DNA of 25,007 nucleotides. It comes from Thermodesulfobacteriota bacterium. GTDB lineage: Bacteria > Desulfobacterota_D > UBA1144 > Nemesobacterales > N074bin48. Of this stretch, positions 280 through 25,007 are shown one piece after another (the first letter of the stretch is position 1; every line of letters starts with the position of its first letter). The stretch lies in contig JBFFSH010000037.1 of NCBI GenBank assembly GCA_041572575.1, positions 1 through 25,007 of the forward strand, written 5' to 3'. The notes beneath the pieces are model-generated. The model saw only the letters and a list, made by a program, of their open reading frames with translations, was not told where the DNA came from and ran no database searches. The position numbers and the translations under genes are program-made.

Positions 280-450
280 TGACCTTCTCCCCGTAAACTG
301 CACCAGTCAAAAAGAGAAATCTGGCAAAATAACACTATTTAACAGGAGGTATATTTTGCCATGAGTAAGTCAAGATTTACTGAAGAACAGATAGCCTTTG
401 CTTTAAGACAGGCAGAGACAGGGACAAAGGTATCCGAGGTATGCAGGAAG
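280..450 (+). mobile_element. IS3-family (IS407 group-like) insertion sequence remnant: left inverted repeat plus 5' part of orfA
   Basis: Begins TGACCTTCTCCCC (IS407-group ends typically begin TGACCTGCCCC), followed by SD AGGAGG and an ORF reading MSKSRFTEEQIAFALRQAETGTKVSEVCRK; similarity stops at ~450. Confidence 0.8.
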
Positions 451-824: not shown

Positions 825-870
825 CGGACTTCTAATCCGTAGGTCAGAGGTTCGAATCCTCTCGGGCGCG
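825..870 (+). pseudogene. 3' fragment of tRNA-Arg(TCT), probable att site of an integrative element
   Basis: CGGA-CTTCTAA-TCCG anticodon arm (anticodon TCT), variable region AGGTC, T arm AGAGG-TTCGAAT-CCTCT and 3' acceptor strand CGGGCGC+G. The upstream sequence lacks the complementary GCGCCCG 5' strand and a D arm; no CCA. Confidence 0.8.
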
Positions 871-1069: not shown

Positions 1070-2116
1070 TTAACAAATCCTTGGAAGCTGCTCTCCGCTT
1101 ATCATATCTACAATGCGGTTTGTTCCCAGCAGGTTTTTCATTGTAACAACCGCCTGTGCATCGTCCTTAACAAATCCAATTATAGAACCCTCTCCATAAT
1201 TATTCATAATTTTTAGAGCCTTTTGAGCGTGCTTGGGGTTTACAAAAGCAATAAACCTGCCTTCATTTGCGACATGCATGGGATCAAGGCCCAGTATTTC
1301 ACATACTCCTCTTACCTCGTTACTTAATTTAATTGAAGCTTCTTCAATCTGTATATGAGTTTTTGATGCCTGTGAAATTTCTACTAAAGCGCTTGCTAGT
1401 CCACCTCGGGTTAAGTCTCTCATACAGTGAACATCTACGCCTTCACCTATAAGACTGGAAACCGGCTCACAGAGTGGAGCAGAATCACTCTGTATCTCAT
1501 TTTCGAATTCCAGTCCTTCTCTTAGGGTCATTATTGCTATGCCGTGTCTGGCAATATCACCATTTAATATTATAGCGTCTCCGGGGCTAACATTCGAAGG
1601 AGCAATACTGATGTTTGAATCTACGATCCCTATCCCGGAGGTGTTAATGTAAATCCCGTCACCTTTTCCTTTTTCAACCACCTTGGTGTCTCCGGTGACA
1701 ATCTGAACACCTGCAATTTCTGCCGATTCTTTTAATGAGCTAATAACTTTCCATAGAGTCTCTGTTGCAAACCCCTCTTCTATTATAAGCCCAATGCTTA
1801 TATAAAGCGGCTTAGCTCCGCACATGGAAAGATCGTTAACAGTTCCGTTTACAGCCAGTTTCCCAATATCTCCCCCCGGGAAGAAAAGAGGAGAAACGAC
1901 ATATGAATCAGTCGTAAATGCTATCTTGGTATTTTCAAAATTAACTATAGCGCCGTCGTGGCGGGCATTTAGGATGTTATTGTCAAAGGCCGGCAGAAAC
2001 ATCTTCTCTATAATATTGTTCATAAGCTTACCGCCTCCACCATGAGCAATTTGTATATTGGGGTATTGGTCGGTTGATATAGGGCAGGATAGTGAAAAAT
2101 CTTTAATTTTTCCCAT
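1070..2116 (-). CDS. hypE: Hydrogenase maturation carbamoyl dehydratase HypE
   Basis: [51 protein letters not shown] and the C-terminal PRIC motif. Confidence 0.98.
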
Positions 2117-2154
2117 AAGATTATTTTATTGATTTAGGTAATGTACAAATTAAT

Positions 2155-3246
2155 TCATACTTCTGCTTTTCTGTATTTATAGTAAGCGGCGCACGCCCCC
2201 TCGGATGATACCATTGTGGCTCCAAGTGGATGCTCCGGAGTACATTCCTTGCCAAAGGCAGAACACTCCAGTGGTTTTTTAACGCCCCTAAGAACAAGTC
2301 CGCTTATACAGTCTTTTGACTCTTCTGCTGAATAAGTTTCTAAATTGAAAATTTTTTCAGCATCATATTTCTCATATTTAATTTTAATTCCAAGACCGCT
2401 TCGTTCTATTTCTCCTATGCCTCTCCACTTTCTGGGTACTATTTCAAATACTTCTTCTATGATTTCTATAGCTTTCAAATTGCCGTCTTCTTTAACCGAC
2501 CTTTTATATTGATTTTCTACTTCATGCCTGCCTTCTTCGAGTTGTTTGATACACATGCAAATTCCCTGCAGAAGATCAAGAGGCTCAAACCCCGTGGCAA
2601 CGATAGGAACCTTGTATTTTTCTGCAATTGGAAAGTACTCTTTATATCCCATAATGGTACATACATGACCGGCTGCTAAAAATCCCTGCACCTTGTTATT
2701 CAAGGAAGATAGAATTGCTTCAATAGCCGGGGGCACAAGAACATGTGATACGAGGAGCGAGAAATTATCGATACCCCTATTGTAAGCCTGATACAGCGTC
2801 ATTGCTGTTGCTGGGGCGGTTGTCTCAAACCCTACTGCAAAAAAAACAATTTTTTTAGACGGATTATCTTTTGCAATCTTAAGACAGTCCAGAGGCGAGT
2901 ATACTATCCTAATATCTGCACCCTTTGCTTTTACCGACAGTAAATCTCCGGTAGTGCCGGGGACTCTAAGCATATCGCCAAATGAACAAAATATGACATT
3001 ATCCAGCAAAGCTATGGTAAGCGCCTTATCTATAAGCTCAACAGATGTAACGCATACTGGACATCCGGGGCCATGAAGCAGTTCAATTTTATCTGGAATA
3101 AGCTCGTCTAAACCGTATTTTACTATTGCATGTGTCTGCCCCCCGCAGACTTCCATAATAGTCCATTGCTTGGTTGTAATATCTTTTATTAAATTGCTGT
3201 ATCTGCGGGCAGAATCCGGATCGCGGTATTCGTCTATAAATTTCAT
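2155..3246 (-). CDS. hypD: Hydrogenase maturation protein HypD
   Basis: [25 protein letters not shown]-like AGHV and C-terminal Fe-S cysteines with [10 protein letters not shown]. Confidence 0.98.
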
Positions 3247-3258
3247 CTATTTCCTATT

Positions 3259-3513
3259 TTATATTTCACCGTCTTTCAATTCACTGAGCTCATCAATTTC
3301 TCTTAGATATTCAAACACCTGATCGGCTTCTTTTTCATCAACCTGGCTTATTGCAAAACCCACATGAACCATAACGTAATTGTTCACATCAGCTTCGGGT
3401 ACGAATGACAGGTTTACTTCTTTTACAAGCCCTCCGAAACTTACTTTACCCCTCCTTGTTAATGGGGCGTTATCCGTAATTCCAATTATTTTTCCAGGTA
3501 TGGCTAGACACAT
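3259..3513 (-). CDS. hypC: Hydrogenase chaperone HypC
   Basis: N-terminal MCLAIP and YVMVHVGFAI motifs. Confidence 0.98.
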   Translation of the reverse strand: MCLAIPGKIIGITDNAPLTRRGKVSFGGLVKEVNLSFVPEADVNNYVMVHVGFAISQVDEKEADQVFEYLREIDELSELKDGEI

Positions 3514-3516
3514 ATC

Positions 3517-5829
3517 CTACTCCTTTTGCTCCATATTATATGACGCTCCTATTATTTGCCCTAGTGCTAATCCCCCGTCATTTGAAGGAATCATCTGGTT
3601 GTAGTAGGGGCGGAATCCCTCTTTCTTCAAGTGAATAATCGCACTTTCCAGCAGGTATTTATTTTGAAAACATCCTCCTGTAAGCACTACATTTTTTAAC
3701 TTAAAATAATTTGCAACCGATACAATAATATCAGTAAGCGTGTTGTGAAACTTTGCCGATATAATTCCTGCATGTGTCTTTGCTTTTAAATCATCTATTA
3801 TGCTTATAATCATTTGCTCCCAGTCTATTATTATAGATGATAAATCGGTATCAGGACATAGATTTAGTGAATAGTTGTATTTATACTCTGTCTTATGAGC
3901 TTCAGCAATAAATTCCATTTTCATGGCAGCCTGCCCTTCGAAATCATTAAAATGACAAAGACCCAAAATGGAGCTTACCGCATCGAACATTCTTCCTGCA
4001 CTCGATGTTGTATTAGTATTTATTTTTTTGCTCAGCGCAGATTTTAATATTCTCAGTTGCTGAATAGAAAAAGTTTTTGTGGGTTTAAGATCGTTCATCT
4101 TAAAAATTTCTTCTCCAAATATTTCATAAAGAATACCTATCGCAGCGCGTCTTGGTTCCTTTATAGCTTTTTCTCCGCCTGGAAGAGGAAAGGTTCTGAA
4201 ATGAGCTACCCTGTTATACGATCTATCACTGACACTTAGGAATTCGCCGCCCCAGATAGTTTTGTCATCACCATAACCTGTTCCATCCCAGCATACTCCC
4301 AGTGCAGTTTTTTCTATTTTGTTTTCTGCGATACAGCCTAATACATGTGCATAGTGGTGCTGAACAGGGATTACAGGCAAATTTCTAGTTTCAGCATATT
4401 GTGTAGACATATAACCCGGATGTTTGTCACAAGTAATTGATTTTGGATTAGAATCAAAAAGTTTTTCAAATGATTTTATCTCATCTTTAAAATTATTGAA
4501 TGCCTCTAAAGTTTCTAAATCGCCAATGTGCTGGCTCATATGTATATAATTTCCATTTGCAACAGAAAAAGTGTTTTTCAGATGACCACCAACGGCCAAT
4601 AGATCCGGCACCTTATTTTTGATATAAACTGAGTGTGGAGAGTAGCCTCTTGCTGACCGTATTACAGTTACTTTGTTCATAATCACCCTTGCAACAGAAT
4701 CATCGACTCGTCTTTTTATTGGTCTGTTATGAACCAGAAAAAGATCGGCAATTTCTCCCAGTCTTTCGAGCGCCTCGTTTTCATCTATACATATTGGTTC
4801 ATCAGAAATATTGCCGCTTGTGGCGACAACCGGTGTCCCAAGCTCTTCCATTATTATATGGTGAAGTGGGGTGTATGGCAGCATGATGCCAAGATAAGGA
4901 TTGTCTGGCGCTATCTCAGAAGGAAATTCATGAGACTTATTTTTAAGAAGTACAATTGGACTTTCATTTGAAGTGAGTAGGGTAGCTTCTTTTTTTGAAA
5001 CCCTGCAGTGAAGCTTAACAGTACCGAGAGTTGGAAACATCATTGCAAAAGGTTTGTGCTTTCTTTTTTTTCTCTTTCTTAATTTTAAAACAGCATCCCG
5101 ATTAAAAGCATCTGTTATCAGATGAAATCCGCCTAATCCTTTTAGAGCCACAATCCTTCCGTTTTGTATTTCTAATATAGCTTTATGTATAGCTTCATCT
5201 TTTAAGAACAGAGGGTTTCCCTTAGAGTCCCAAAGCTCAACAGCAGGTCCGCACTGTGCACAGCAGTTTGTTTGTGTGTGAAAACGCCTGCTTGAAGGGT
5301 CGTCATACTCTATACTACACTCCTTGCACATGCTGAAGTTTTTCATAGTTGTGTTCGCTCTGTCGTAAGGCATAGACTCTATAATGCTATAACGAGGCCC
5401 GCACACAGAACATGATGTGAAAGGATATAAATATCTGCGGTTATTGGGATCAAAAATTTCTGCGGTACAGTCAGTACAGGTAGCCATATCAGGCTGAACT
5501 AAAGTACTGTTGTTTGGAGTCATGGCGCTGGTGGCTATTTCAAAATCTTTATAGCCTCTATATTTTAGTTCTGCTTTCTCTATTTTTCGTATAACACAGT
5601 TTGGAAGTTCATCATTACTTAATTTCGTTAAAAGATCACAAATGTCTTTCACTCTGCCTTCAGCTTCAATTATGACTCCTTCTGTTGTATTTTTTACCCA
5701 GCCTCTAAGCCCAAGTTTTTTAGCAATCCTGAATACATATGGCCTCATGCCCACACCCTGCACGCGTCCGTATATTTTTATTTCCGTTCTTGTAAGCTTG
5801 TGATCCCGAGTAGCTTCTAAGTGATTAAT
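3517..5829 (-). CDS. hypF: Carbamoyltransferase HypF (start probably ATT at 5829; first canonical start is GTG at 5763)
   Basis: Acylphosphatase motif IKIYGRVQGVGMRP, two CxxC-x18-CxxC zinc fingers, KGLGGFHL, TSGN, HHYAH, DGTGYG and NDGGLALGQ. The frame is open upstream of 5763 to a TAG just 5' of AAA ACA ATT. Confidence 0.96.
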   Translation of the reverse strand: MNHLEATRDHKLTRTEIKIYGRVQGVGMRPYVFRIAKKLGLRGWVKNTTEGVIIEAEGRVKDICDLLTKLSNDELPNCVIRKIEKAELKYRGYKDFEIATSAMTPNNSTLVQPDMATCTDCTAEIFDPNNRRYLYPFTSCSVCGPRYSIIESMPYDRANTTMKNFSMCKECSIEYDDPSSRRFHTQTNCCAQCGPAVELWDSKGNPLFLKDEAIHKAILEIQNGRIVALKGLGGFHLITDAFNRDAVLKLRKRKKRKHKPFAMMFPTLGTVKLHCRVSKKEATLLTSNESPIVLLKNKSHEFPSEIAPDNPYLGIMLPYTPLHHIIMEELGTPVVATSGNISDEPICIDENEALERLGEIADLFLVHNRPIKRRVDDSVARVIMNKVTVIRSARGYSPHSVYIKNKVPDLLAVGGHLKNTFSVANGNYIHMSQHIGDLETLEAFNNFKDEIKSFEKLFDSNPKSITCDKHPGYMSTQYAETRNLPVIPVQHHYAHVLGCIAENKIEKTALGVCWDGTGYGDDKTIWGGEFLSVSDRSYNRVAHFRTFPLPGGEKAIKEPRRAAIGILYEIFGEEIFKMNDLKPTKTFSIQQLRILKSALSKKINTNTTSSAGRMFDAVSSILGLCHFNDFEGQAAMKMEFIAEAHKTEYKYNYSLNLCPDTDLSSIIIDWEQMIISIIDDLKAKTHAGIISAKFHNTLTDIIVSVANYFKLKNVVLTGGCFQNKYLLESAIIHLKKEGFRPYYNQMIPSNDGGLALGQIIGASYNMEQKE

Positions 5830-6091
5830 TGTTTTCTACCTCTACGGATTCTAGGACTATTTCCTGGGCAAGGGGATCATTCATGTCTTTTGAAATTATG
5901 AACTCAATCTCTGCATTTTCGGCAATGCTGCCATTTGAAAGCTCATAGAAATGTTCTTTGAAATGCTCAGGTGTAGTGTGGGATAGGGCACCTAGTTTAA
6001 TCTTAAAACTTTTTACTGTTTTAGCATCGTTTTCGTAAGCAATTGATTCTATTTTCTTTATTAGATTTTTTATAAGAGAGTGCTCATGCAT
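5825..6091 (-). CDS. hypA: Short HypA/HybF-like nickel metallochaperone lacking the zinc-binding domain (88 aa)
   Basis: N-terminal MHE nickel motif (ATG at 6091, overlapping the protease stop as ATGCATGA), V..F.I.LG.LS, GSIAENA.IE and C-terminal LESVEVE; no cysteines. Confidence 0.85.
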   Translation of the reverse strand: MHEHSLIKNLIKKIESIAYENDAKTVKSFKIKLGALSHTTPEHFKEHFYELSNGSIAENAEIEFIISKDMNDPLAQEIVLESVEVENN

Positions 6092-6578
6092 GTTGTGCTC
6101 CAAAATTATTAATTTCTTTAATTATTATGCCGGCGGTCTTATTAATATTTTTTTGAACCTTTTGAGAAAGAATATCACCATAAGAAAAATCCTTTCCTTC
6201 GATTCCGTAGACTATAAGAACTTCCGGAAGTTTGTCCAAAGCCCGCGCAAGCTCAACTGCATCAGCTATGCTAAATGAATGTGTTGAGTAATTGAATATA
6301 TCTTCAGTTAAAAGCGTTTGCTTAACATCAAACCGCTTAATTGCCCCAGCCTCAGCTCCTGAAGATATTGCATCCGCTATTATGACTATGTCATAACCTT
6401 TCCATGATTCGATGAGTCTTGTAGCTTCACCGTCTTGTTTTGATATTGCACACTTTCCCGCAGGAATAATCTGCTCGATCCGTTCTGCTATAAAAAGCCC
6501 TGCTCCGTCGTCACTCCTGTATTTATTTCCTATACCTATAAAAAGAATGTTTGAATTATTGCCTCGGTATTCGGTCAT
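6084..6578 (-). CDS. Hydrogenase maturation endopeptidase (HycI/HyhP-like)
   Basis: GIGNKYRSDDGAG, IIADA and STHSF motifs; immediately downstream of the large subunit. Confidence 0.95.
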   Translation of the reverse strand: MTEYRGNNSNILFIGIGNKYRSDDGAGLFIAERIEQIIPAGKCAISKQDGEATRLIESWKGYDIVIIADAISSGAEAGAIKRFDVKQTLLTEDIFNYSTHSFSIADAVELARALDKLPEVLIVYGIEGKDFSYGDILSQKVQKNINKTAGIIIKEINNFGAQHA

Positions 6579-6584
6579 GGTTTT

Positions 6585-7901
6585 TCATTCTCTATCTATA
6601 TCGAGTTTAAGAAAATGTGTCGCGCAGGAAATGCAGGGGTCGTAGTTTCTTATTGTTTGCTCACAGTGCCATGTAAGCTCTTTGTCGCTAAGGCTAATGT
6701 TGTTATCTACAAAATCGCACAAATCACTTTCTATTGTTTTTTGATTTTGTGAAGTCGGGGGTACAATCTTTGCATCCAATATACTGCCTTCTTTGTCCAT
6801 TTTATACCTGTGATAAAGAATACCCCTTGGAGCTTCGGTGCATCCAAAACCTGTGGACACCGACGGTTTTATTTCTAGTCTAGATTTTTCAGGCATTTCA
6901 TATTGATCTATGATTCGCAGCGCCTCATCGCATGCATACAGTATCTCGATGCTCCTTATTATTATGCTTTTGAATGTATTGTTGCATAGGGGTTCAAGCC
7001 CTGCATCCTTAGCAGTCTCTTTGGCAAGTGGTGAGAGCTTATCAAAATTAAGATTGTAACGGGCCATAGGGCCAACAAAGTATTCTCCCCTTCCTTTAAT
7101 AACCGAATGAAGGGCATTTGTGTATGAGATGTGTTGTTCTTCAAAATATTGATCATAATCGCTGGCCTCAATATCCATTCCCTTATTTGATACAATTCTG
7201 CCCTCGTTAATTGGATATTCATTGGGATGACTGAGGGCAACATATTCATAATCCCTATAAAAATCAGGGAATGTGAATTTAGATACCAATTGTACTGTTT
7301 GCATTGCATCATCTCTTGCTCGTTTGAGATCATCTTTAATTCCGATTAGTTCACTTTTCGTAGGCAGTTTATAAAAACCCCCAACGCATATATTTATTGG
7401 ATGAATTTCCCTTCCGCCAATAAGAGACATTAAGTCGTTTCCGATCTTTTTTAGCTTAAGTCCTCGAGCCACTTCCTTTGGATAGTCTTTTGCCATTTCG
7501 ATTGCGCTCTCGTAACCCAGAAAATCAGGCGCATGCAGCATATATACATGAAGCGTATGACTTGCAATCCACTCCCCGCAGTATATTAAACGTCTGAGGG
7601 CTCTCAGTTGTCCATCCACATTTATACCAAAGGCATTTTCCATGGCGTGACATGCGCTCATCTGATACGCAACCGGACATATACCGCAAATCCTGGCTGT
7701 TATATCGGGGGCTTCATCAAACCTTCGTCCCCGCAGAAGTGCTTCAAAGAACCGCGGCGGCTCAAATATTTTTAATTTTACATCTTTAACTTTATCATCT
7801 TTGACTTTTATATATAGAGCACCTTCACCCTCTACCCTTGCAAGGTAATCTACTTTTATCGTTTTAGTTTTGGACTTATTGCTAGTCTCTTTCTTTTTCA
7901 T
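6585..7901 (-). CDS. hydA: Group 3b [NiFe] hydrogenase (sulfhydrogenase-type) large/alpha subunit
   Basis: RVEGEG, L1 RICGICP, EAPRG and L2 DPCISCATH followed by the cleavable tail [12 protein letters not shown] at 7901 is preferred over GTG at 7910. Confidence 0.95.
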
Positions 7902-8670
7902 AAAGCTCACTTTCTTTTAGAAATTCATCTGAATATGCATTAATACCCCTAAAAGCCCTCAATATATCTTCATTTTTTACACCCAGTGTTTTCCACTCTT
8001 TGCTCAGTGCCTTTGTGTTAGCAGTTTCCGTGGGTCCGAAACAACCATAGCAGCCCCTCAGATAAGAGGGGCATAAAGCTCCACAGCCAGCTTGTGTTAC
8101 CGGGCCCAGGCAAGGAGTACCATTAGCCACCATGACGCAAACATTACCCAGCATCTTGCACTCGATGCAGACACTGTGCGGCGCCGTGTTTGGTTTTCGT
8201 TTATTCAAAAATGCGCTAATTACTTCAATTAGCTGATACTTATTTATCGGACAACCACGAAGCTCAAAATCCACTCTTACATGATCTGCAATAGCGGTGG
8301 ATTTTTCCAGAGTTTGTATATATGATGGTATCGCATAAACAATAGAAATAAAATCTTTTACATCTTTAAAATTTCTAAGTGCCTGAATTCCACCTGCTGT
8401 AGCACATGCGCCAATTGTAATTAAATATTTTGAGCATTTTCTTACTTGCTGAATCCTTTTTAGATCTTTAGGCGTTGTTATTGAACCTTCAACAAGCGAT
8501 ATATCATAGGGGCCTTTTATTATTCTGCGGGAGGCTTCGGGAAAGTTTGCAATTTCAATCTCCCCCGCAACTCTAAGAAGTTCTTCTTCACAGTCTAACA
8601 AGCTAAGCTGACAGCCGTCACATGATGCAAACTTCCATACTGCAAGCTTTGGCTTTTGTTTGTCTGCCAT
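7882..8670 (-). CDS. hydD: Group 3b hydrogenase small/delta subunit
   Basis: ASCDGCQ, EGSI, GACA, GCP and distal Fe-S cysteines (CIEC, CLGP, CP..RGCYGC). Confidence 0.93.
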
Positions 8671-8671
8671 T

Positions 8672-9511
8672 TTATAGCTCCCTTATGTTAAGCAGATTTT
8701 CAATGTTGCTATACTTAAACACTGGCCCGTCCTTACAGATAAAGTTTGGGCCGTATTGACAGCGTCCGCAAAATCCCACAGCACACTTCATATTACGTTC
8801 CATAGATAAATATATCATGTCTGCCCTTACGCCGCATTTTAGCAGTTCTGAAACCGAATATCTCATCATTATTTCCGGGCCGCAAATCATTGCCACGGTG
8901 CTTGCCGGATCAAATGCTGCTCTTGGGATAAGAGTCGTCACTACTCCTACATTGCCATGCCAGTTTTGCGAGTCATAATCAACGGTTATCTCCAATTCCA
9001 GATCAAAACGCCTGCGCCACTTTTGAAGTTCCCTTTTATATATAATGTCTTCTGAACTTCTGGTACCATAAAGCAGAGTTACTCTTCGGTAATTTTCTCT
9101 GCCAGAAATAATTTTATATATGACCGGCATGACTGGAGCAAGCCCTATACCACCGGCAACTATTACAAGATCATTTCCTTTAGCCTTCTCTATTGGCCAG
9201 CTGCTCCCATAGGGGCCTCTTATACCTACTGTATCTCCGCGTTTTAATCTGCTAATAGCACTGGTAACATTTCCTACACTGCGTATCGTATGCAAAACTG
9301 AATCTTGATCAGCCGGATCACCGGTAATAGAAATCGGCACTTCTCCAATACCGTATATATACATCATATTAAACTGTCCTGGAGAAAATCTAATTTTGGA
9401 TTTTATATCTTGGGGTAAAAGTTTTAATGTGAAGGTATCATGTGTTTCCCTTTTGATCCGATCGATGACATATAGCGTCGGTATAAATGGACTTTTAATT
9501 TTGTCTGGCAT
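8672..9511 (-). CDS. hydG: Group 3b hydrogenase gamma subunit (FAD/NAD(P)-binding with [2Fe-2S])
   Basis: [34 protein letters not shown] and [14 protein letters not shown]...CKDGPVF. Confidence 0.93.
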
Positions 9512-9518
9512 AACAAGG

Positions 9519-9992
9519 TCAATTACCGTCTCCGTACAAGTCTAGCAGTCTCAGTCTTGTTCCCTGAAGGCGCTCAGCAATAATATAAGAAAACCTCTTC
9601 ATAAGTTCATATCCAAGCCTTGGGTCATCTTCACATTTTTCTCTTAAACATTTTCCATCAAGCGCTACCGCACGAACAAGACTAATTGCACGAGCGTCCA
9701 AAAACCATCTGTATGGAGGATATAACCACGACCAGCCGAGCACATCTCCCTCAGAAATAGTTTCTATTGTTATCGGGCCGCGATTGGGAGACGAAATTTC
9801 CAAGGCTATTTTACCGTGCCTGATAATATAAAAGTGATCGGCGTTCTGTCCCTCACGAAATATATAATCTTCTGAGTTGAATTTTATATTCGATCCGCAC
9901 CCTGCTATGAGCTTTAAATATTCCGGATCAAGGCCCTCAAAAAATGAGTGCTCTTTAAGCAGGCTATCGATTGATTTAAGGTTTTTTGCCAC
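9519..9992 (-). CDS. Stand-alone cyclic-nucleotide-binding (CAP effector) domain protein without HTH
   Basis: IFREGQNADHFYIIRHGKI...GDVLG beta-barrel pattern; 157 aa, too short to carry a Crp DNA-binding domain. Confidence 0.88.
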   Translation of the reverse strand: MAKNLKSIDSLLKEHSFFEGLDPEYLKLIAGCGSNIKFNSEDYIFREGQNADHFYIIRHGKIALEISSPNRGPITIETISEGDVLGWSWLYPPYRWFLDARAISLVRAVALDGKCLREKCEDDPRLGYELMKRFSYIIAERLQGTRLRLLDLYGDGN

Positions 9993-10002
9993 CAGTATAT
10001 CC

Positions 10003-11142
10003 TTATTCTTCTTTTTCGGTTTTTCTTATTGCGTCTATCTCTTCTGTTATATCTATTCCAACCGGACACCAGGTAATGCACCTGCCACAGCCAACGCATC
10101 CGGAAGTGCCAAACTGGTCGATCCATGTTGCGAGTTTGTGTGTTATCCACTGACGATAACGCGACTTTACCGACGTACGAACACTCCCGCCATGGATATG
10201 TGAAAAATCCATGGTAAAACATGAATCCCACTTCTGTACCCTCTCAGTATTATCACCAGTCAGGTCGGTTGTATCTTCTACCGTAGTGCAAAAACATGTT
10301 GGGCATACCATAGTGCAATTGGCACAGGAAAGACATCTGTCGGCGACTTCGTCCCACCGCGGATTTTCATAGTTACGGTAAAGAAGCTCTTTAATATCCG
10401 ATGTGTCTATCTCTCTGCCCATCTGACCGCGTGTATTATCTACTATAGAATCCGCTGCTTCCATATCCTTTTCTGAGGCATATTCATTTGGAATTTCATT
10501 TATAACTTCCAGTGCCTCCTGGGTGCCGACTTCTACTACAAAGTAATGCCCCCGGGGTTTAATTATTTCTGTTAAGCTTAGGTCAAAACCAAATTCTACT
10601 TTGGGGCCCGTGTTCATAGAATCACAAAAACAAGTGCTTGCCGCCTGTCCGCAGTTAACTGCTACAACAAATGAGTTTTCCCTGTTTGATTTATAAGCAT
10701 TGTCTATAAACTGCCCGCCTGTAAATACCCTATCCTGTATTGACATTGCATGAATTTCGCAGGATCTTACCCCTATAAACGCATATTTATTGGCAACTTC
10801 TTGCTCTTCAACAATCTCAAATCCTGTTCCCTTTCGCTTGGCCTGCCATAGTTTTTTGACCGGCGGATGCAAATACTTCTTCCACGAGTGAGGACCAACA
10901 TTATAACCAAAGGCAGCCCGGTCATTTCTTTTTTTTAGACGGTAAGTTCCTCCTTCCTGCTCATCGGTATATCCCACAGGAAGCTCATTTGCCGAGGTTA
11001 GTTCACCATAGACAATTGCATTATCAGCAACTGTTGGTCCAATTACCTTAAAGTTTCTATTTATTAAAGAATCAAAAAGGCTCTGTAGATGCTCATAATT
11101 TAATACAATTTTGTCCCCTATTTGTTTTGGTATATTAGTCAT
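10003..11142 (-). CDS. hydB: Group 3b hydrogenase beta subunit (AsrA-like 4Fe-4S protein)
   Basis: GVRSCE, TCFC, CLSCANCTMVCPTCFC, WDSCF and CVGCGRCITWCP. Confidence 0.93.
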   Translation of the reverse strand: MTNIPKQIGDKIVLNYEHLQSLFDSLINRNFKVIGPTVADNAIVYGELTSANELPVGYTDEQEGGTYRLKKRNDRAAFGYNVGPHSWKKYLHPPVKKLWQAKRKGTGFEIVEEQEVANKYAFIGVRSCEIHAMSIQDRVFTGGQFIDNAYKSNRENSFVVAVNCGQAASTCFCDSMNTGPKVEFGFDLSLTEIIKPRGHYFVVEVGTQEALEVINEIPNEYASEKDMEAADSIVDNTRGQMGREIDTSDIKELLYRNYENPRWDEVADRCLSCANCTMVCPTCFCTTVEDTTDLTGDNTERVQKWDSCFTMDFSHIHGGSVRTSVKSRYRQWITHKLATWIDQFGTSGCVGCGRCITWCPVGIDITEEIDAIRKTEKEE

Positions 11143-11206
11143 ATATTTTTGACCGGTTTACCTAAAGATTTGTACCGAGCATTTACTATTGTCACTAATG
11201 CTCTAA

Positions 11207-12406
11207 TTATAACTTAAATCTCAGAATTGCCCCCATACCATCAATTTTTTCTTTAAGCTTGGAATCATAGACGATATCAACCTCGCATTTTTGGCTGAAT
11301 GCCTCTTCAATTATATAGTCGACTATATCCTGTATCTTGTTTGGTTCTTGATTTTCCGGGCATGGGCTTTGATTGTTATCCAGAATAAGCAGTTTGGACT
11401 TAGGGCAAATGAAGCCGGGTTGTGCAAAACCTTCGTTTATCAGAAGTGTTCTTGTCTGTCCGTTATACAGGGAGTTTAAGGTGGATTCTATTCCATTTAC
11501 TGCTAAACCAGAGCTCAGCTTTTCTTCAAATTCTTCTAATAACTTGCAGTTGTTTTTATATCTTAGATCGTCTAGCAAGTTCATTGATAAATCAAAGAGT
11601 TTATCTGTCTTAATGGTATCAATATCCAGTTTGATATTGCCAAGAAGTTTTGGCTTTAAGTAAGAGTGGATATGATTTGATAAATCTTGGACAACATCAT
11701 CAGAACCACCCAAAATCAACCAGTCAACTTTATTATCCTTAGAATATTCGAAGACCCTGTCTGAGACGTATTTAAAATGTTGTTGAACATCATTCTCTAT
11801 AGTCCGGTTAAAAGTGTATTCTCCATATCCCTGAGACATCATTCTGTCACCAGAAGAGGATGAAACCCGTTGTTTAAATTTACCGTCCTGGGGTTTGAAT
11901 TTATGAGTCCTGGAGGCACCGGGGAAAAGAAACCCCGAAAGCTCCTGTACACCATCCAGGGTTAAATTGAAAAATCTTGCTTTATGTTTATCTATGACCA
12001 AGAATACGGTATTGCCGTATTTATCATTTAATATCATTAATTCACCGACATGGGGATAGTTATTAAAAAAAAGTCTGTCTTTGTTTACAAGCGGCAGGTT
12101 AAACACTTCCCAGAAATCATTAGAAGAACACGAAAATATTGCTATCCCCCTCAACCCTTCTATGTTTTTTGAATTATTAATATGATTTTCTATCATGGCC
12201 AAATCATTTTCTATAGATTTATATTTTTTAATGTCACTTTCCAGATATGAATAGTTTTTCTTAGACTCCTTAATTAGATTTTTCAAAGTTCTTTTATACT
12301 GAAAATCATTTCTTTCATCCGGACCCAACTTTAAATATAGCGTGGTTACATACGATGTGTCATCTTTATATTCTAAAACTTTGTTAATATTGTTTTCTAA
12401 TATCAT
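11207..12406 (-). CDS. Bacterial aeRF1-like (baeRF / Balon-type) protein lacking GGQ
   Basis: Three-domain eRF1/pelota layout: TTLYL...RGIAIFS N-domain, LVIDKHKARFF RNase-H-like M-domain with WLILGG, and a C-domain AVNG..TL..LY.GQ..TLLI...DIVDYIIEEA...VDIV...GMGAILRF. Start ATG 12406 follows SD AGGAGG; the ORF track's upstream start runs through the promoter. Confidence 0.85.
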   Translation of the reverse strand: MILENNINKVLEYKDDTSYVTTLYLKLGPDERNDFQYKRTLKNLIKESKKNYSYLESDIKKYKSIENDLAMIENHINNSKNIEGLRGIAIFSCSSNDFWEVFNLPLVNKDRLFFNNYPHVGELMILNDKYGNTVFLVIDKHKARFFNLTLDGVQELSGFLFPGASRTHKFKPQDGKFKQRVSSSSGDRMMSQGYGEYTFNRTIENDVQQHFKYVSDRVFEYSKDNKVDWLILGGSDDVVQDLSNHIHSYLKPKLLGNIKLDIDTIKTDKLFDLSMNLLDDLRYKNNCKLLEEFEEKLSSGLAVNGIESTLNSLYNGQTRTLLINEGFAQPGFICPKSKLLILDNNQSPCPENQEPNKIQDIVDYIIEEAFSQKCEVDIVYDSKLKEKIDGMGAILRFKL

Positions 12407-12466
12407 AGCGCCTCCTGTCTGAGAAATAGTAATGTAGAGAACTTTTATTTTTCTAATATATGATTT

Positions 12467-12482
12467 TGCAACTGTTGTGCCA
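12467..12482 (-). promoter_or_regulatory. sigma54 (-24/-12) promoter of the baeRF-hydrogenase-hyp operon
   Basis: Minus strand TGGCAC-AACAG-TTGCA, an exact match to TGGCAC-N5-TTGCW, 60 nt upstream of the ATG at 12406 and correctly oriented. Confidence 0.85.
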
Positions 12483-12563
12483 CCGAAACAAATGATTTTA
12501 TTAGGATTAAACGGCAAATATATGCTTGATCTTGTAGAGTGTAAGAATATAAGACATAACCAT

Positions 12564-12580
12564 TGTACTTAAAATGTGCT
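12564..12580. promoter_or_regulatory. Candidate NtrC-type upstream activating sequence
   Basis: TGTAC-TTAAAAT-GTGCT matches TGCAC-N7-GTGCA at 8 of 10 positions and lies ~110-125 nt upstream of the predicted sigma54 start. Confidence 0.35.
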
Positions 12581-14356: not shown

Positions 14357-15403
14357 GTGTCTGAAGATAGCAGCTTAATTTCTATAGATGGTTCTCATGG
14401 AGAGGGTGGGGGACAGATCATTAGAACGTCATGTGCCCTAGCCGCAGTTACAGGAAAAACAATCGAGGTTTTCAATATAAGGAAAAACAGAAGAACCCCG
14501 GGCCTGAGGAGACAGCACTTAATAGGAATTCAAAGTTTAAATAAGTTATGTAACGGATTTATAGAAGGAGCAGCACTTGGTTCACAGGAAATATTATTTA
14601 GGCCTGGAGAAATAAAACCTAAACGGCTCAAGATTGAGATAAACACAGCTGGCAGCATAACCCTTGTATTACAGACTCTCCTGCTCCCTTCTTTTTTGTC
14701 ACCCACGCCGATAATACTCGACTTTCTTGGAGGCGCTACAGATACCTACTTTTCTCCGACAATAGATTACAACCGTAATGTTTTCTTTAAATTTTTAGAA
14801 AAGTTGGGTCTGAGTGCAACAATAAAAATCAAAAAGCGCGGTTTTTTTCCATCGGGAGATTCCAGACTTTCAGTAAAAATCGATCCGGGCTTTCCAAAAT
14901 CGCTTAATTTTCTTGATAGAGGTTCACTGAATAAAGTTACTATTATTTCCGGAGCCTCGAATAATTTAAGAGACGCGAAAGTATCAGAGCGCCAGGCTAC
15001 TGCCGCAAGTAAGCTCTTAAGCTCGAAACTCGACATATCAGCCAATATACAAATTGAATATTACGATACCTTATCTACAGGAAGTCAAATCAACATTATC
15101 GCCGAATTTGAAAACTCGATCATTGGAGTCGATGGTCTTGGTAGTCCGGGAAAACGGGCCGAAAGAGTGGGCAGGCAGGCGGCAAAAAATTTTATTAAGG
15201 AATTTAGATCCAATGCCTGTATGGATAAATATGCCTGTGACCAGATACTTCCTTACATTGCATTATCTAAAGCTGAATCTATTTTCACGACTTCCGAAAT
15301 AACAGAACATACAAAAACTAATATGTGGGTAATTAGTCACTTTTTAAAAAGAACTTTCACTATGGAAAAAGAAGAATCGAGATTTGTAGTAAGGGTTAGA
15401 TAA
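14357..15403 (+). CDS. rtcA: RNA 3'-terminal phosphate cyclase
   Basis: IDGSHGEGGGQIIR, NIRKNRRTPGL..QH, TAGSITLVLQ, RGFFP.G, D.YACDQIL and the catalytic His in ITEHTKTN; GTG start. Confidence 0.95.
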   Translation: MSEDSSLISIDGSHGEGGGQIIRTSCALAAVTGKTIEVFNIRKNRRTPGLRRQHLIGIQSLNKLCNGFIEGAALGSQEILFRPGEIKPKRLKIEINTAGSITLVLQTLLLPSFLSPTPIILDFLGGATDTYFSPTIDYNRNVFFKFLEKLGLSATIKIKKRGFFPSGDSRLSVKIDPGFPKSLNFLDRGSLNKVTIISGASNNLRDAKVSERQATAASKLLSSKLDISANIQIEYYDTLSTGSQINIIAEFENSIIGVDGLGSPGKRAERVGRQAAKNFIKEFRSNACMDKYACDQILPYIALSKAESIFTTSEITEHTKTNMWVISHFLKRTFTMEKEESRFVVRVR

Positions 15404-15606
15404 TCAAACTTAAAGTGAAATGCTTATAAAGGGATATTAATATATTGTATTTATATTGCTGAAGATACATTAAATACGAATTGTAATATAAAAACATATA
15501 CAAATTTAATTGTGATGCTAAAGTATAAATGCAGAGGCTCCTTCAGGGCTTTCATTTTGTATATTGATGCTACTATATTTGCTTTATATAAAGGAGTGGT
15601 TGGATA

Positions 15607-16965
15607 ATGCAAATTAACCATGAGAACATTCACAGAGGAGAGCCTGTCCCTTTTAAAGTCTACACTCAAAATAATCTCACTAAAATTGCTCAATTAAAGC
15701 ACTTTAATTCTGAGCAGTTATTTGATATGCAGGTTGTAGCCACCGTTCTGCCATTCAGGGTAAACCAGCACATTATAGACAGTCTTATTGATTGGGACAA
15801 TGTACCCGATGACCCTATGTTTCAGCTTACTTTCCCGCAGCGAGACATGCTTGAACCGGAACACTTTGAGCAAGTTGCCGAATTGATCAAGTCTGGTGCT
15901 GACAAACAGAAGTTAAAATCAGTTGTTCGTGAAATCCACATGCAACTAAACCCTCATCCTGCAGAGCAGCTCACACTTAATGTCCCTCGTCACGATGGCG
16001 TTAGAATTTCAGGTGTTCAGCACAAGTATCGTGAAACAGTTGTATTTTTCCCAAGTCAGGGACAAGTATGTCATTCGTTTTGCACGTTTTGCTTTCGCTG
16101 GCCTCAGTTTGTTAATGATTCAGAACTCCGTATAGCGCTTACTGAAGGGAAGCTTCTCAGAAGTTATCTGCATGATCAAAAAGAAGTCACGGACCTTCTT
16201 ATCACTGGGGGAGACCCCATGGTAATGAAGACGTCCAAATTAGCCAAGCACATAGAACCCATACTTGGAAGCGAGTTCGACCATATACAAAACATAAGAA
16301 TAGGAACAAAAGCTCTAACTTACTGGCCTTATCGTTTTACTAGAGATTCAGACTCAGATGATCTGCTTAGGTTGTTTGAAAGAGTTGTAAAATCAGGCAA
16401 GCATCTGGCTTTAATGGCACACTTTACACACTTCAGGGAATTGGAACCTGACGCCACAGTCGATGCCATAAAGAAAATACAATCCACAGGGGCTGTAATA
16501 CGCAGCCAATCTCCGGTGCTGAATCACATCAATGATGATCCAGCTGTATGGGCAAGGCTGTGGCGTGAACAGGTAAATCTTGGGGTTGTTCCATATTATA
16601 TGTTTGTTGAACGTGATACCGGAGCCAGACGCTATTTTGAGCTTCCTTTAATTCGTACTTGGGAGATTTACCAAAATGCAATTCAACAAGTGTCAGGACT
16701 AGGGCGTACGGCTAGAGGGCCTTCTATGAGTGCGGGCCCCGGTAAAGTAGAGATCCAGGGAGTATCACGGGTCAATGGGGAAGAATGTTTCATATTGCGT
16801 TTTATTCAGGGACGAAACCCTGATTGGGTAGATCGTCCTTTCTTTGCTAGCTGTGATCCCGGGGCAAAATGGTTAGACCATTTAAAGCCTGCTTTTGGAG
16901 AAAATAAATTCTTTTATGAAGATGAATATGAGCAAATGCTCGAAAAGCACTTGGTAGGTTTTTAG
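15607..16965 (+). CDS. KamA-family (lysine 2,3-aminomutase-like) radical SAM/PLP enzyme, substrate uncertain
   Basis: HKY, radical SAM motif CHSFCTFCFR, TGGDP, IRIGT, PYY and GPGKV (PLP-lysine position); SD AAGGAG upstream. Confidence 0.88.
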   Translation: MQINHENIHRGEPVPFKVYTQNNLTKIAQLKHFNSEQLFDMQVVATVLPFRVNQHIIDSLIDWDNVPDDPMFQLTFPQRDMLEPEHFEQVAELIKSGADKQKLKSVVREIHMQLNPHPAEQLTLNVPRHDGVRISGVQHKYRETVVFFPSQGQVCHSFCTFCFRWPQFVNDSELRIALTEGKLLRSYLHDQKEVTDLLITGGDPMVMKTSKLAKHIEPILGSEFDHIQNIRIGTKALTYWPYRFTRDSDSDDLLRLFERVVKSGKHLALMAHFTHFRELEPDATVDAIKKIQSTGAVIRSQSPVLNHINDDPAVWARLWREQVNLGVVPYYMFVERDTGARRYFELPLIRTWEIYQNAIQQVSGLGRTARGPSMSAGPGKVEIQGVSRVNGEECFILRFIQGRNPDWVDRPFFASCDPGAKWLDHLKPAFGENKFFYEDEYEQMLEKHLVGF

Positions 16966-17003: not shown

Positions 17004-18260
17004 TTAAGGGTAAATTCCTCTGATCCTTGTAGCATCTGCTACTCTCTGTATACCCATCATAAGAGCAGCAGAACGAAGGGTTAAGCGATTATCATCGGCG
17101 TACTGAGTGAGTTTATTATACTTGTTTTGTATCCTTGTCTTAAGCTCCTTAAAAACCATTTCTTTTAACCAGTAATATTCCTGGATTCCCTGAACCCATT
17201 CAAAGTATGAAACTATAACACCGCCTGAGTTTGCCAGTATGTCTGGCAGGACTTTAATGCCCTTGTCTTCTAATATTTCATCGGCTCCGGGAGTTGTAGG
17301 TCCATTTGCACCTTCTGCAATTATATTGCATTTTAATTTGGTTGCATTATTGTCATTGATTACTCCACCAAGAGCAGCGGGTATGAAAATATCACAGTCT
17401 ATACCAATTAATTCTTCGTTGGTTACTTTATCTGCTTCTTCATACTCGCTAACCTTCATACCTTCTTTATTTAATTCAATGATATTTTCTACAGGCAGTC
17501 CGAAAGGGTTATAAATACCACCCTTGCTGTCACTTATAGCTACTATATTACAACCCATCTCTTTTAGTTTTAAAGCTGCGAAACTTCCCACATTTCCAAA
17601 ACCCTGTATTGCAACCTCTATATTGGACATTTCCTTGTTCTCTTTATGGATCGCAGCTTCTGTAGCATAAGCAACTCCAAATCCGGTGGCTTCTTCTCTA
17701 CCAAGTGAACCTCCTATATTAAGCGGTTTTCCTGTTACAACTGATGGAGATGTATAACCAACACTCATGCTGTATGTATCCATTATCCATGACATGATTT
17801 GTGCATCAGTTCCTAAATCGGGAGCGGGTATATCTTTGTTTGGTCCGATGATAGGAAGTATTTCTGCGGTATATCTTCTTGAGAGCCTTTGCAGTTCATC
17901 TACTGATAGCTGTTTAGGATCTACAGTGATACCTCCCTTGGCTCCACCAAATGGTAGTTCCGAAAGAGCGCACTTCCATGTCATATTCATTGCAAGTGAA
18001 GCGACTTCACCCATATCCACAGTGGGATGAAATCTTATACCACCCTTACAAGGACCCAGAGTTTGATTATGCTGGATCCTGTAACCACTAAAAACCTTCA
18101 CATTTCCATCATCCATTTTTATAGGACAGTCTACAATAAGAGTGCGCTGGGGGGTTCTGAATTTCTCTACAATCCAGTCTTCCAGTTCCAGAATATCGCA
18201 GACTTTTTCAAACTGTGCTACTGAATTCTCAAAAGCATCTGATTTAAATAGTTCATTCAT
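17004..18260 (-). CDS. gdhA: NAD(P)-dependent glutamate dehydrogenase
   Basis: GPCKGGIRF, MTWK, GGAKGG, DIPAPD, VTGKP, GGSLGREEATG, QGFGNVG, EGANGP and VSYFEW. Confidence 0.93.
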   Translation of the reverse strand: MNELFKSDAFENSVAQFEKVCDILELEDWIVEKFRTPQRTLIVDCPIKMDDGNVKVFSGYRIQHNQTLGPCKGGIRFHPTVDMGEVASLAMNMTWKCALSELPFGGAKGGITVDPKQLSVDELQRLSRRYTAEILPIIGPNKDIPAPDLGTDAQIMSWIMDTYSMSVGYTSPSVVTGKPLNIGGSLGREEATGFGVAYATEAAIHKENKEMSNIEVAIQGFGNVGSFAALKLKEMGCNIVAISDSKGGIYNPFGLPVENIIELNKEGMKVSEYEEADKVTNEELIGIDCDIFIPAALGGVINDNNATKLKCNIIAEGANGPTTPGADEILEDKGIKVLPDILANSGGVIVSYFEWVQGIQEYYWLKEMVFKELKTRIQNKYNKLTQYADDNRLTLRSAALMMGIQRVADATRIRGIYP

Positions 18261-24380: not shown

Positions 24381-25007
24381 CTAAACAAATTTTGGAGCTG
24401 ATGAAAACGCAGAAAACCTGCGGTATTCCATAGCTTTTTTCACTCTTGCTGTAGCAAGCTCGGTGGCAGCCTGCCTTGGGGCAATTTTTTTATTTGCTGA
24501 GTCCTCTAAAACCTGCTGTGTATTTCTTCTAATTTTATCTTTTATGGATTCAAATACTGAAGATTCTGTAGCACCCTGATATTCCATTGCTGCGCAGATT
24601 ACTCCGCCTGCATTTGCAACGAAGTCCGGAACATTAATTATTCCCTTTTTGAATAGAATCTTTTCAGCCTCTGTAGTTGCAGGAATATTTGCCCCAGCCA
24701 CAATAAGCCTGGTCTTCATTTGATCTACGTTTTTTTCGGTTATTACATCAGGACGGGCCGCAGGAATCCATATCTCGCATTCTATTTCTATAACATCATC
24801 ACGCTTTAACACCTTACCCTTTTTATATTCCGACAGGCTCTTACCTGAGTTCTTATGCTCTATTAATTCATTTACATCAAGTCCATCCGGATCATATACA
24901 GTAGCTTTAGAATCAGATGCTGCTACCATTACTGCTCCCATGTCAGATAGAAATAGTGCTGAATGTTTTCCCACAGCCCCAAAACCCTGAACTACAAATC
25001 GCGCTCC
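24381..25007 (-). CDS. Glu/Leu/Phe/Val dehydrogenase, C-terminal NAD(P)-binding domain (5'-truncated by the window edge)
   Basis: Frame open to the window end: GARFVVQGFGAVGKH (Rossmann motif), IPAA, GANIP and VPDFVANAGGVI. Confidence 0.9.
   Translation of the reverse strand, partial: GARFVVQGFGAVGKHSALFLSDMGAVMVAASDSKATVYDPDGLDVNELIEHKNSGKSLSEYKKGKVLKRDDVIEIECEIWIPAARPDVITEKNVDQMKTRLIVAGANIPATTEAEKILFKKGIINVPDFVANAGGVICAAMEYQGATESSVFESIKDKIRRNTQQVLEDSANKKIAPRQAATELATARVKKAMEYRRFSAFSSAPKFV

Follow-up and report, generated by a model that had tools for sequence, protein, structure and literature searches.

Why should a gene for a putative ribosome hibernation protein stand at the head of a hydrogenase gene cluster? 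The question arises from a 25,007-nucleotide (nt) stretch of DNA, hereafter the window, which comprises positions 1-25007 of contig JBFFSH010000037.1 (C37) in the Thermodesulfobacteriota assembly GCA_041572575.1 (G000, 96% complete). Close homologues carry Candidatus Dadabacteria cluster labels, and DNA of the window is present in sequencing runs of marine water and sediment. The leading gene, baeRF, encodes a Balon-like protein, and the genes behind it a predicted group 3b hydrogenase with its maturation proteins. We consider it fairly probable that a low-oxygen heme-PAS kinase and its NtrC-type partner switch on a set of sigma54 promoters marked by the box TGT-N11-ACA, including that of the Balon-like/hydrogenase run. 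As a gene arrangement the operon is genuine, though confined to a narrow lineage; the greater and more valuable finding is the proposed regulon behind it.

A preliminary description of this DNA had proposed twelve co-oriented genes from baeRF to hypE, separated by at most 64 nt or overlapping. Gene calls and profile matches bear this out for the minus strand, in the order baeRF - hyhB - cNMP (cyclic nucleoside monophosphate-binding domain) - hyhG - hyhS - hyhL - protease - hypA - hypF - hypC - hypD - hypE, with the widest gap (64 nt) between baeRF and hyhB and with two overlapping gene pairs. The terminator said to be missing between baeRF and hyhB is indeed not apparent, as a scan of positions 11143-11206 returned no terminator-like site, and a sigma54 motif scan of the window found no promoter of hyhB's own in the gap. 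The whole run is predicted, and is likely, to form one transcript. All four group 3b subunits (alpha, beta, gamma and delta) are encoded together, and their best matches are to the ShyA/HydA, ShyB/HydB, ShyD/HydD and gamma-subunit models, all under equivalog cut-offs; subunit content and these best matches point to a group 3b enzyme. The gene for a cNMP-binding domain is a usual member of the bacterial group 3b gene order. In hyhL, the sole [NiFe] large subunit found in G000, the L1 and L2 CxxC motifs are intact, and a cleavable C-terminal extension and a protease are both present.

The exact sigma54 promoter described upstream of baeRF (12467-12482) proved to be the only zero-mismatch site among four matches in the window. 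The genome contains rpoN, 18 matches to sigma54-activator domains (12 of them strong) and 12 strict sigma54 sites, where base composition alone would predict about 1.3. Standard sigma54 spacing predicts a start site near 12455-12456. Translation of baeRF starts at ATG 12406 behind GGAGG and yields 399 amino acids; a 436-amino-acid frame from TTG 12517 was rejected, as it crosses the promoter and most close homologues have 399 residues. An NtrC-like upstream activating sequence placed earlier at 12564-12580 could not be upheld. It has two mismatches, six such matches occur in the window against 7.4 in shuffled sequence, and an alignment of four sequences (window, L012, L015 and L017) leaves just 4 of 17 columns unchanged in it, compared with 13 of 17 for the box TGT-N11-ACA at 12540-12556. 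The same alignment keeps three islands, namely this box, the -24/-12 element and the ribosome site, and flanking DNA is not conserved.

The box also precedes baeRF in L013, L014 and L020, so that the gene is found behind it in three upstream contexts: with an adenosine-kinase gene upstream (window, L012, L013, L015 and L017), divergent from D-2-hydroxyacid dehydrogenase and phosphoenolpyruvate (PEP) synthase genes (L014), and divergent from HPF-RtcB (L020). In L019 the box lies one gene further upstream of baeRF, and degenerate boxes read by eye in f2 loci were partial in L021 and L186, with none clear in L187-L189. The baeRF promoter of L014 (4352-4455) carries the same box as a dehydrogenase promoter of G000 (C118:3042-3145), which suggests that genes may shuffle between promoters of the regulon.

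Scanning the genome for sigma54 motifs with an upstream site showed that the box recurs before other sigma54 sites in G000. For six of the 78 relaxed sigma54 matches, one being the discovery site in the window, a box lies at a distance of 55-110 nt upstream, compared with a background of 1.5% at random positions; further pairs lie on contigs C24 and C10. The box matrix was built from six sites of the genome itself, so that the scores of those sites are circular. High-scoring matrix matches on C69, C82 and C61 were set aside, as they fall within genes and look like noise. Judged by the predicted products (Table 1), the box-sharing genes are a low-oxygen respiration and stress set. The AAA_33 kinase gene divergent from FtsH-HlyD encodes a protein that we take to resemble Rv2004c. 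The box-plus-sigma54 pattern was found in 19 of 41 genomes, and a reversed control pattern in none of the 41. The 24 downstream genes scanned in relatives included five for CcoI-like ATPases, four for CBS proteins, four for cytochromes c and one for an oxidase subunit II; four had no family. The claim of sigma54-activator control in a low-oxygen-type context has thus gained a box, a candidate activator and a box-sharing gene set.

The candidate activator and a kinase form a pair within a box-rich cluster on C10, itself behind a box/sigma54 pair (Table 1). One of the several PAS domains of the kinase best matches the heme domains of DosP and FixL and keeps the aligned His; both the proximal His and the distal G.GR-type Arg region of a FixL/DosP-type heme PAS are present, and the His...G.GR motif was found in 11 of 16 loci. 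The whole kinase scores under the FixL equivalog cut-off (161/850), and there is no globin among the five best of its 12 Pfam families. Orthologues of the activator, at 61-67% identity, occur in 16 of 40 relatives. Of the 17 genomes that carry the orthologue, 16 show the box pattern, compared with 3 of the 24 that lack it. This association makes it likely that the C10 pair reads the box.

In the mechanism that we favour, O2 would leave the FixL-type PAS heme at low oxygen and the kinase would phosphorylate the activator, which would bind TGT-N11-ACA boxes and open the sigma54 promoters. Targets would include the cbb3 oxidase, NosZ, cytochrome c peroxidase, USPs, Hsp20, CBS proteins, FtsH, PGK and the activator's own operon. 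The Balon-like protein would park ribosomes without releasing peptides, and the hydrogenase would be a two-way valve between NAD(P)H and H2, through which reductant would most likely be vented once O2 and N2O have run out. Venting is proposed because of the precedent in Mycobacterium smegmatis, whose Hyh evolves H2 under hypoxia (10.1101/2023.09.11.557286, with a further account in 10.64898/2026.10.24.761498), and because HydDB gives NADPH oxidation to H2 as the primary role of group 3b enzymes, which it lists as physiologically reversible (PMC5037454).

Several observations weigh against this scheme. The first concern the operon itself. Contigs, the only data used from the RNA runs (4 of 18 runs), are uninformative as to a single transcript: those of run X1 cover all bins evenly, as DNA would; coverage by X7 and X9 is patchy and extends to DNA upstream of the promoter; a single X9 contig spans 11042-11311 but does not show a transcript; and X8 gave two contigs on baeRF, one on the cNMP gene and nothing else. 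Maturation may be weak, as HypA is short and hypB was not found in the 96% complete assembly, in which hypA, hypC, hypD, hypE and hypF are present; a minimal nickel-insertion route is possibly in use. Neither acetate kinase nor, over cut-off, an ADP-forming acetyl-CoA synthetase was found in G000, and a fermentative ATP route via acetate is therefore not evident. Membership of baeRF in the regulon is not universal, since 14 f7 loci have the gene behind TruD or a gene that is presumably TrmI-like, with no upstream sigma54 motif. As to the regulator, the reversed-pattern control leaves the commonness of sigma54 sites unaccounted for, and the pairing of regulator and box is a correlation among kin genomes that are not independent. 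Genome G013 has six good box sites and no activator orthologue (best match 40%), G026 has an orthologue without a pattern match, and G000 has 11 other strong sigma54 activators. The sign of the O2 response is read from gene content.

The short HypA lacks the C-terminal zinc-binding part, and it is 90-92% identical in L012 and L017.

A serious alternative, though we regard it as rather unlikely, accepts the same regulon and operon and takes the hydrogenase to be mainly an uptake enzyme that would oxidize H2 from the fermentation of neighbouring organisms, reduce NAD(P)+ and feed complex I, cbb3 and NosZ. The regulon would then be about microoxic and N2O respiration, not about dormancy with venting. 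Such a role would fit the single [NiFe] large subunit found, the presence of NuoF, the box shared by cbb3 and clade II NosZ, the acetate kinase not found in G000 and the reversibility listed in HydDB. However, the primary role given there runs towards H2 (PMC5037454), the M. smegmatis enzyme evolves H2 under hypoxia (10.1101/2023.09.11.557286), and PGK and PEP synthase genes lie in box-bearing loci.

The history of the linkage bears on whether baeRF and the hydrogenase belong together at all. Six of 16 metagenome baeRF loci encode proteins 66-92% identical to that of the window, and four of the six have hyhB directly downstream (L012 and L013 being near-identical); L015 has none. L014 (5783-6058) has an in-frame hyhB-hypE fusion remnant of 91 amino acids, which joins the start of hyhB to the end of hypE at an 8-nt shared stretch and was left when about 9 kb, holding hydrogenase and hyp genes, was deleted and baeRF was kept. 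The other ten metagenome loci show no hydrogenase, although L019 ends at the stop codon. In a quick tree, for which the careful search was unfinished, the close baeRF clade divides most deeply between L017 and the window, L012 and L016, with hydrogenase-linked copies in both branches, and the baeRF-hyhB gap stays at 64-93 nt in linked loci. In L017 (8001-9200), baeRF is 66% identical to that of the window, compared with 90% for hyhB and 91% for the upstream gene; the baeRF of this locus appears to have been replaced in place, with promoter and hydrogenase kept.

Elsewhere the linkage is rare. Among 119 other genomes of the phylum, baeRF occurs in 30 and hyhB in none. A same-genus genome (G001, 74% complete) matched neither the baeRF protein nor 8 kb of the DNA and is therefore neutral on the point, and a GTDB scan with a single baeRF protein found no relative. 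Of 15 f2 loci, four have a sigma54 motif within 1.5 kb, seven have neither motif nor YbaK-type gene, and in four more baeRF follows a YbaK-type gene directly or across one small open reading frame. Beyond two close homologues, the best hyhB matches are 63-70% identical and come from scattered phyla. In the best 80 of 593 outside hyhB loci, many with flanks under 10 kb, baeRF lies near hyhB in two, both from Dictyobacter, where it is of another subfamily and downstream of the protease; this survey used one baeRF profile, which may miss distant families, and 207 leftover open reading frames fell outside the Pfam scan. The Dictyobacter juxtapositions would be independent. They comprise a different Balon-like gene shortly after the 3b protease gene (L057 15405-16328 and L061 15637-16863), and the copy in L057 looks broken. 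No strict sigma54 motif was found within 400 nt upstream of hyhB in about 46 outside loci among those listed.

Of the proposed conserved coupling between ribosome shutdown and H2 disposal, one part therefore stands: adjacency is kept in several close loci, as the neighbourhood survey showed for four of them. The idea of a dedicated, conserved coupling is weakened, because the link is limited to one narrow clade. Elsewhere, box/sigma54 promoters drive or precede baeRF in a number of settings where no hydrogenase is present. It is likely that baeRF has long been part of the lineage and entered the regulon before the hydrogenase, and that a single clade acquired the hydrogenase cluster by lateral transfer, the cluster then making use of the baeRF promoter. 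The coupling would therefore be one of shared regulation and not of mechanistic partnership, and an enzyme cluster acquired laterally could come under suitable control through insertion behind a gene that is already in a regulon. An origin of the operon in a genomic island was rejected, as the orientation of a tRNA-like fragment places the island on the side away from the operon and GC content at third codon positions gave no signal.

It seems to us quite improbable that the adjacency is accidental, with the sigma54 promoter serving baeRF alone and the hydrogenase transcribed separately, weakly or not at all. The zero count of hyhB in the 119 other genomes of the phylum would agree with such an accident, as would the deletion of the cluster in L014 and its absence from L015, the want of a clear Shine-Dalgarno site before hyhB and the X8 contigs. 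Against this, the link spans the deepest split of the clade and survived the apparent replacement of baeRF, and the gap is steady in length, with no terminator or own promoter found in it.

We give equally little credence to a different reading of the signal, in which another activator reads the box, or the kinase either responds to NO, CO or redox state or works in its O2-bound form; the operon would then not simply be induced by low O2. Heme sensors differ in the sign of their response, which counts for this reading, as do the several PAS domains of the kinase and the exception of G013. That genome has a box-rich cluster (C7:580544-608281) enclosing a different NtrC-type pair (40% identical). 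The placement of the G000 kinase and activator on C10 argues for the pair as box reader, and high-affinity cbb3 oxidases are typically induced by hypoxia (PMC11841059).

The lead protein had been described as an aeRF1-like factor without GGQ. Its translation and a loop alignment confirm that GGQ is missing, and the NIKS motif is absent too. It scores 40.3 bits against the PF18854 (baeRF family 10) cut-off of 27.1, and misses those of the NCBIfam Balon equivalogs NF052287-9 (75.3/330, 38.9/480 and 26.4/320 bits). A profile from 146 sequences placed the MSMEG_1130 Balon top among solved structures, with aRF1 behind. The AlphaFold model (pLDDT 88.4) likewise has its best structural match in MSMEG_1130 Balon (8V9L; Z 25.1, root-mean-square deviation (rmsd) 4.3, 365 residues aligned), compared with Z 16.2, rmsd 11.4 and 321 residues for the best eRF1; three Balon-family proteins are closest, Balons giving Z values of 20-25 and release factors at most 16, all values being affected by the domain arrangement of the predicted model. 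The proposed aeRF1/Balon-like character thus holds, with a fold nearer Balon than eRF1/aRF1, and the protein likely works like Balon, though outside the curated equivalogs. At the catalytic Gln position, following a lengthened loop, the alignment has Glu196; this position is Gln in GGxSQ-type homologues and Glu throughout the window's clade. G28-P29 occupy the likely position of the HP motif in the N domain, both invariant in one homologue alignment and P29 in another; MSMEG_1130 aligns DP there, so that HP may not be universal. A C-domain insert (about residues 325-358) with short strands and conserved C334/C349 is a candidate counterpart of the EF-Tu-binding hairpin of Balon. The Cys334/Cys349 pair is at least 90% conserved in 146 homologues and could possibly form a metal site or redox switch on the EF-Tu-facing side. 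That the protein is an active rescue peptidyl-tRNA hydrolase instead of a hibernation factor is very improbable: family 10, the best Pfam family here, was singled out by Burroughs and Aravind as often keeping the catalytic Gln (PMC6514570), E196 and its G-x-G neighbours are invariant across 28 homologues, and the protein scores far under the Balon cut-off (75 versus 330 bits), but the Gln position is Glu throughout the clade, the fold is nearer Balon, and one homologue (L020) lies divergently to HPF and RtcB, which Helena-Bueno et al. list among the usual neighbours of Balon (PMC10901736).

Table 1. Features of the 12-gene run in the window and of box-bearing loci elsewhere in G000 (window coordinates unless a contig is given)
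Feature	Position	Strand	Basis or remark
Candidate activator box TGT-N11-ACA, palindromic	12540..12556	.	Starts 74 nt upstream of -24 element; conserved in kin
sigma54 -24/-12 promoter motif TGGCAC-N5-TTGCA	12467..12482	-	Exact match; conserved in L012, L013, L015, L017; rpoN present
Shine-Dalgarno GGAGG of baeRF	12411..12415	-	Sequence; invariant in alignment
baeRF, Balon-like family-10 protein, 399 amino acids	11207..12406	-	PF18854; AlphaFold model; structural match; loop alignment
hyhB, beta (Fe-S) subunit	10003..11142	-	Fer4_22; best NCBIfam HydB/ShyB, under their cut-offs
Stand-alone cNMP-binding-domain protein	9519..9992	-	PF00027; many outside loci have it here too
hyhG, gamma (FAD/NAD(P)-binding) subunit	8672..9511	-	Profile matches
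hyhS, delta (small) subunit	7882..8670	-	Profile matches
hyhL, alpha ([NiFe] large) subunit	6585..7910	-	Both Ni-binding CxxC motifs; short C-terminal extension
Hydrogenase maturation protease	6084..6578	-	TIGR00072 over cut-off
Short HypA, 92 amino acids	5825..6103	-	Aligns to only first 65 of 112 profile positions
hypF	3517..5763	-	TIGR00143 over cut-off; frame open upstream, true start probably slightly upstream of 5763
hypC	3259..3513	-	NCBIfam profile match
hypD	2155..3246	-	NCBIfam profile match
hypE	1070..2116	-	NCBIfam profile match
Predicted heme-PAS kinase, FixL type	C10:36732-39155		PAS domains
NtrC-type activator, partner of kinase	C10:39155-40504		
Box promoter of outer-membrane protein gene			Box also ~155 nt from divergent ccoI-ccoNO-P-G (cbb3) promoter
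Box promoter of Hsp20-USP-cytochrome c-permease			
Box promoter of cytochrome c-nosZ (clade II)-nosD			
Box promoter of small-protein/CBS run			
Box promoter of Glu/Leu/Phe/Val dehydrogenase	C118:3042-3145		Divergent from AMP/thymidine phosphorylase and PEP synthase
Box promoter of FtsH-HlyD			Divergent from AAA_33 kinase
Box promoter of USP-PGK-CBS-rhodanese-cytochrome c peroxidase			
Box promoter of GNAT-kinase-activator operon	C10		

Around the run, the 3' part of a tRNA-like sequence lies just past hypE (825-870, plus strand; no whole tRNA was found in this place), as does a short transposase start (about 360-430, plus strand), which we take to be IS3-like; together they likely mark an att site, the element itself lying on the side of the contig end. 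Upstream of the promoter, an RtcA gene and then a KamA-family radical SAM gene (14357-16965, plus strand) are shared with L012 and missing at this place in L017. Two Glu/Leu/Phe/Val dehydrogenase genes (17004-18260 and 24381-25007, minus strand) lie on either side of a run of genes for 2-oxoacid:ferredoxin oxidoreductase and acyl-CoA ligase; amino-acid breakdown through these products would be a likely supply of reductant close to the hydrogenase.

The elements of this locus can be set against several known systems. The beta-cNMP-gamma-delta-alpha-protease-hyp order of bacterial group 3b clusters is the same in many phyla; in the present case baeRF and a sigma54 promoter stand in front of it, and the search for hypB was negative. 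With the Balon family (P. urativorans Balon, MSMEG_1130 and Rv2629) and baeRF family 10, the lead protein shares the three-domain aeRF1 fold, the absence of GGQ, a C-domain insert and stress-gene neighbours. It is, however, only 15-17% identical to the solved Balons and under their NCBIfam cut-offs, and it differs in its longer middle-domain loop, in GP where an HP-type motif is expected and in its conserved Cys pair. With the rhizobial FixL-FixJ-FixK cascade the candidate switch would share a FixL-type heme PAS with aligned His and cbb3/fixGHI-type targets. The output of FixL is FixJ/FixK, in place of which a sigma54 activator is predicted here, and no Crp/Fnr-type factor was found in G000 in two family searches. 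DosR is a NarL-type, non-sigma54 regulator. The mycobacterial DosS/T-DosR system nevertheless resembles the present one in being a heme-sensor two-component switch over a group 3b hydrogenase, a small heat-shock protein and PEP synthase (10.1101/2023.09.11.557286, 10.64898/2026.10.24.761498), and the mycobacterial Balon homologues MSMEG_1130 and Rv2629 are hypoxia-induced (PMC10901736). In contrast to DosR, the predicted parts here are a PAS-heme kinase, an NtrC-type sigma54 activator and a TGT-N11-ACA box, the Balon-like gene and the hydrogenase lie in one run, and the set adds a cbb3 oxidase and NosZ. Alongside DosR, the nearest system is the oxygen-utilisation regulon NmpRSTU of Myxococcus xanthus, with a heme sensor kinase that signals to an NtrC-like sigma54 activator and a set of targets that includes a CcoI-type ATPase and a cbb3 oxidase, but it has the protoglobin NmpU in a multi-step phosphorelay, as opposed to a single PAS-heme kinase-activator pair, and the box GCGCA-N5-TGCGC (PMC11841059).

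The word 'hibernation' does not occur in the NmpRSTU paper (PMC11841059), nor 'hydrogenase' in the main text of PMC10901736 or 10.1101/2025.11.04.686544; Graham and Tully described terrestrial-clade Dadabacteria as facultative anaerobes in a text that does not contain 'hydrogen' (10.1101/2020.06.22.165886). No description of the baeRF-hydrogenase link or of the regulon was found in a literature search that did not extend to supplements and subscription papers, including Balon operon datasets that could list such neighbours; the low-oxygen sigma54 regulon is apparently undescribed. If the regulon is as proposed, an uncultured phylum gains a named O2 sensor, activator, binding box and regulon, and the control of a clade II N2O reductase by the same switch would bear on when these bacteria consume N2O. 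The evidence leaves us evenly balanced on a wider proposition, that a master O2 switch of Candidatus Dadabacteria (FixL-type heme-PAS kinase, sigma54 activator, TGT-N11-ACA box) independently assembled two sets of genes, the dormancy kit of DosR (Balon, USPs, Hsp20, CBS proteins, PEP synthase, Rv2004c-like kinase and group 3b hydrogenase) and the respiratory kit of FixK (cbb3, NosZ and peroxidase), one marine clade having placed hibernation and H2 exchange on a single mRNA. DosR-style ribosome protection and a hydrogen valve would then have evolved again, on a sigma54 chassis.

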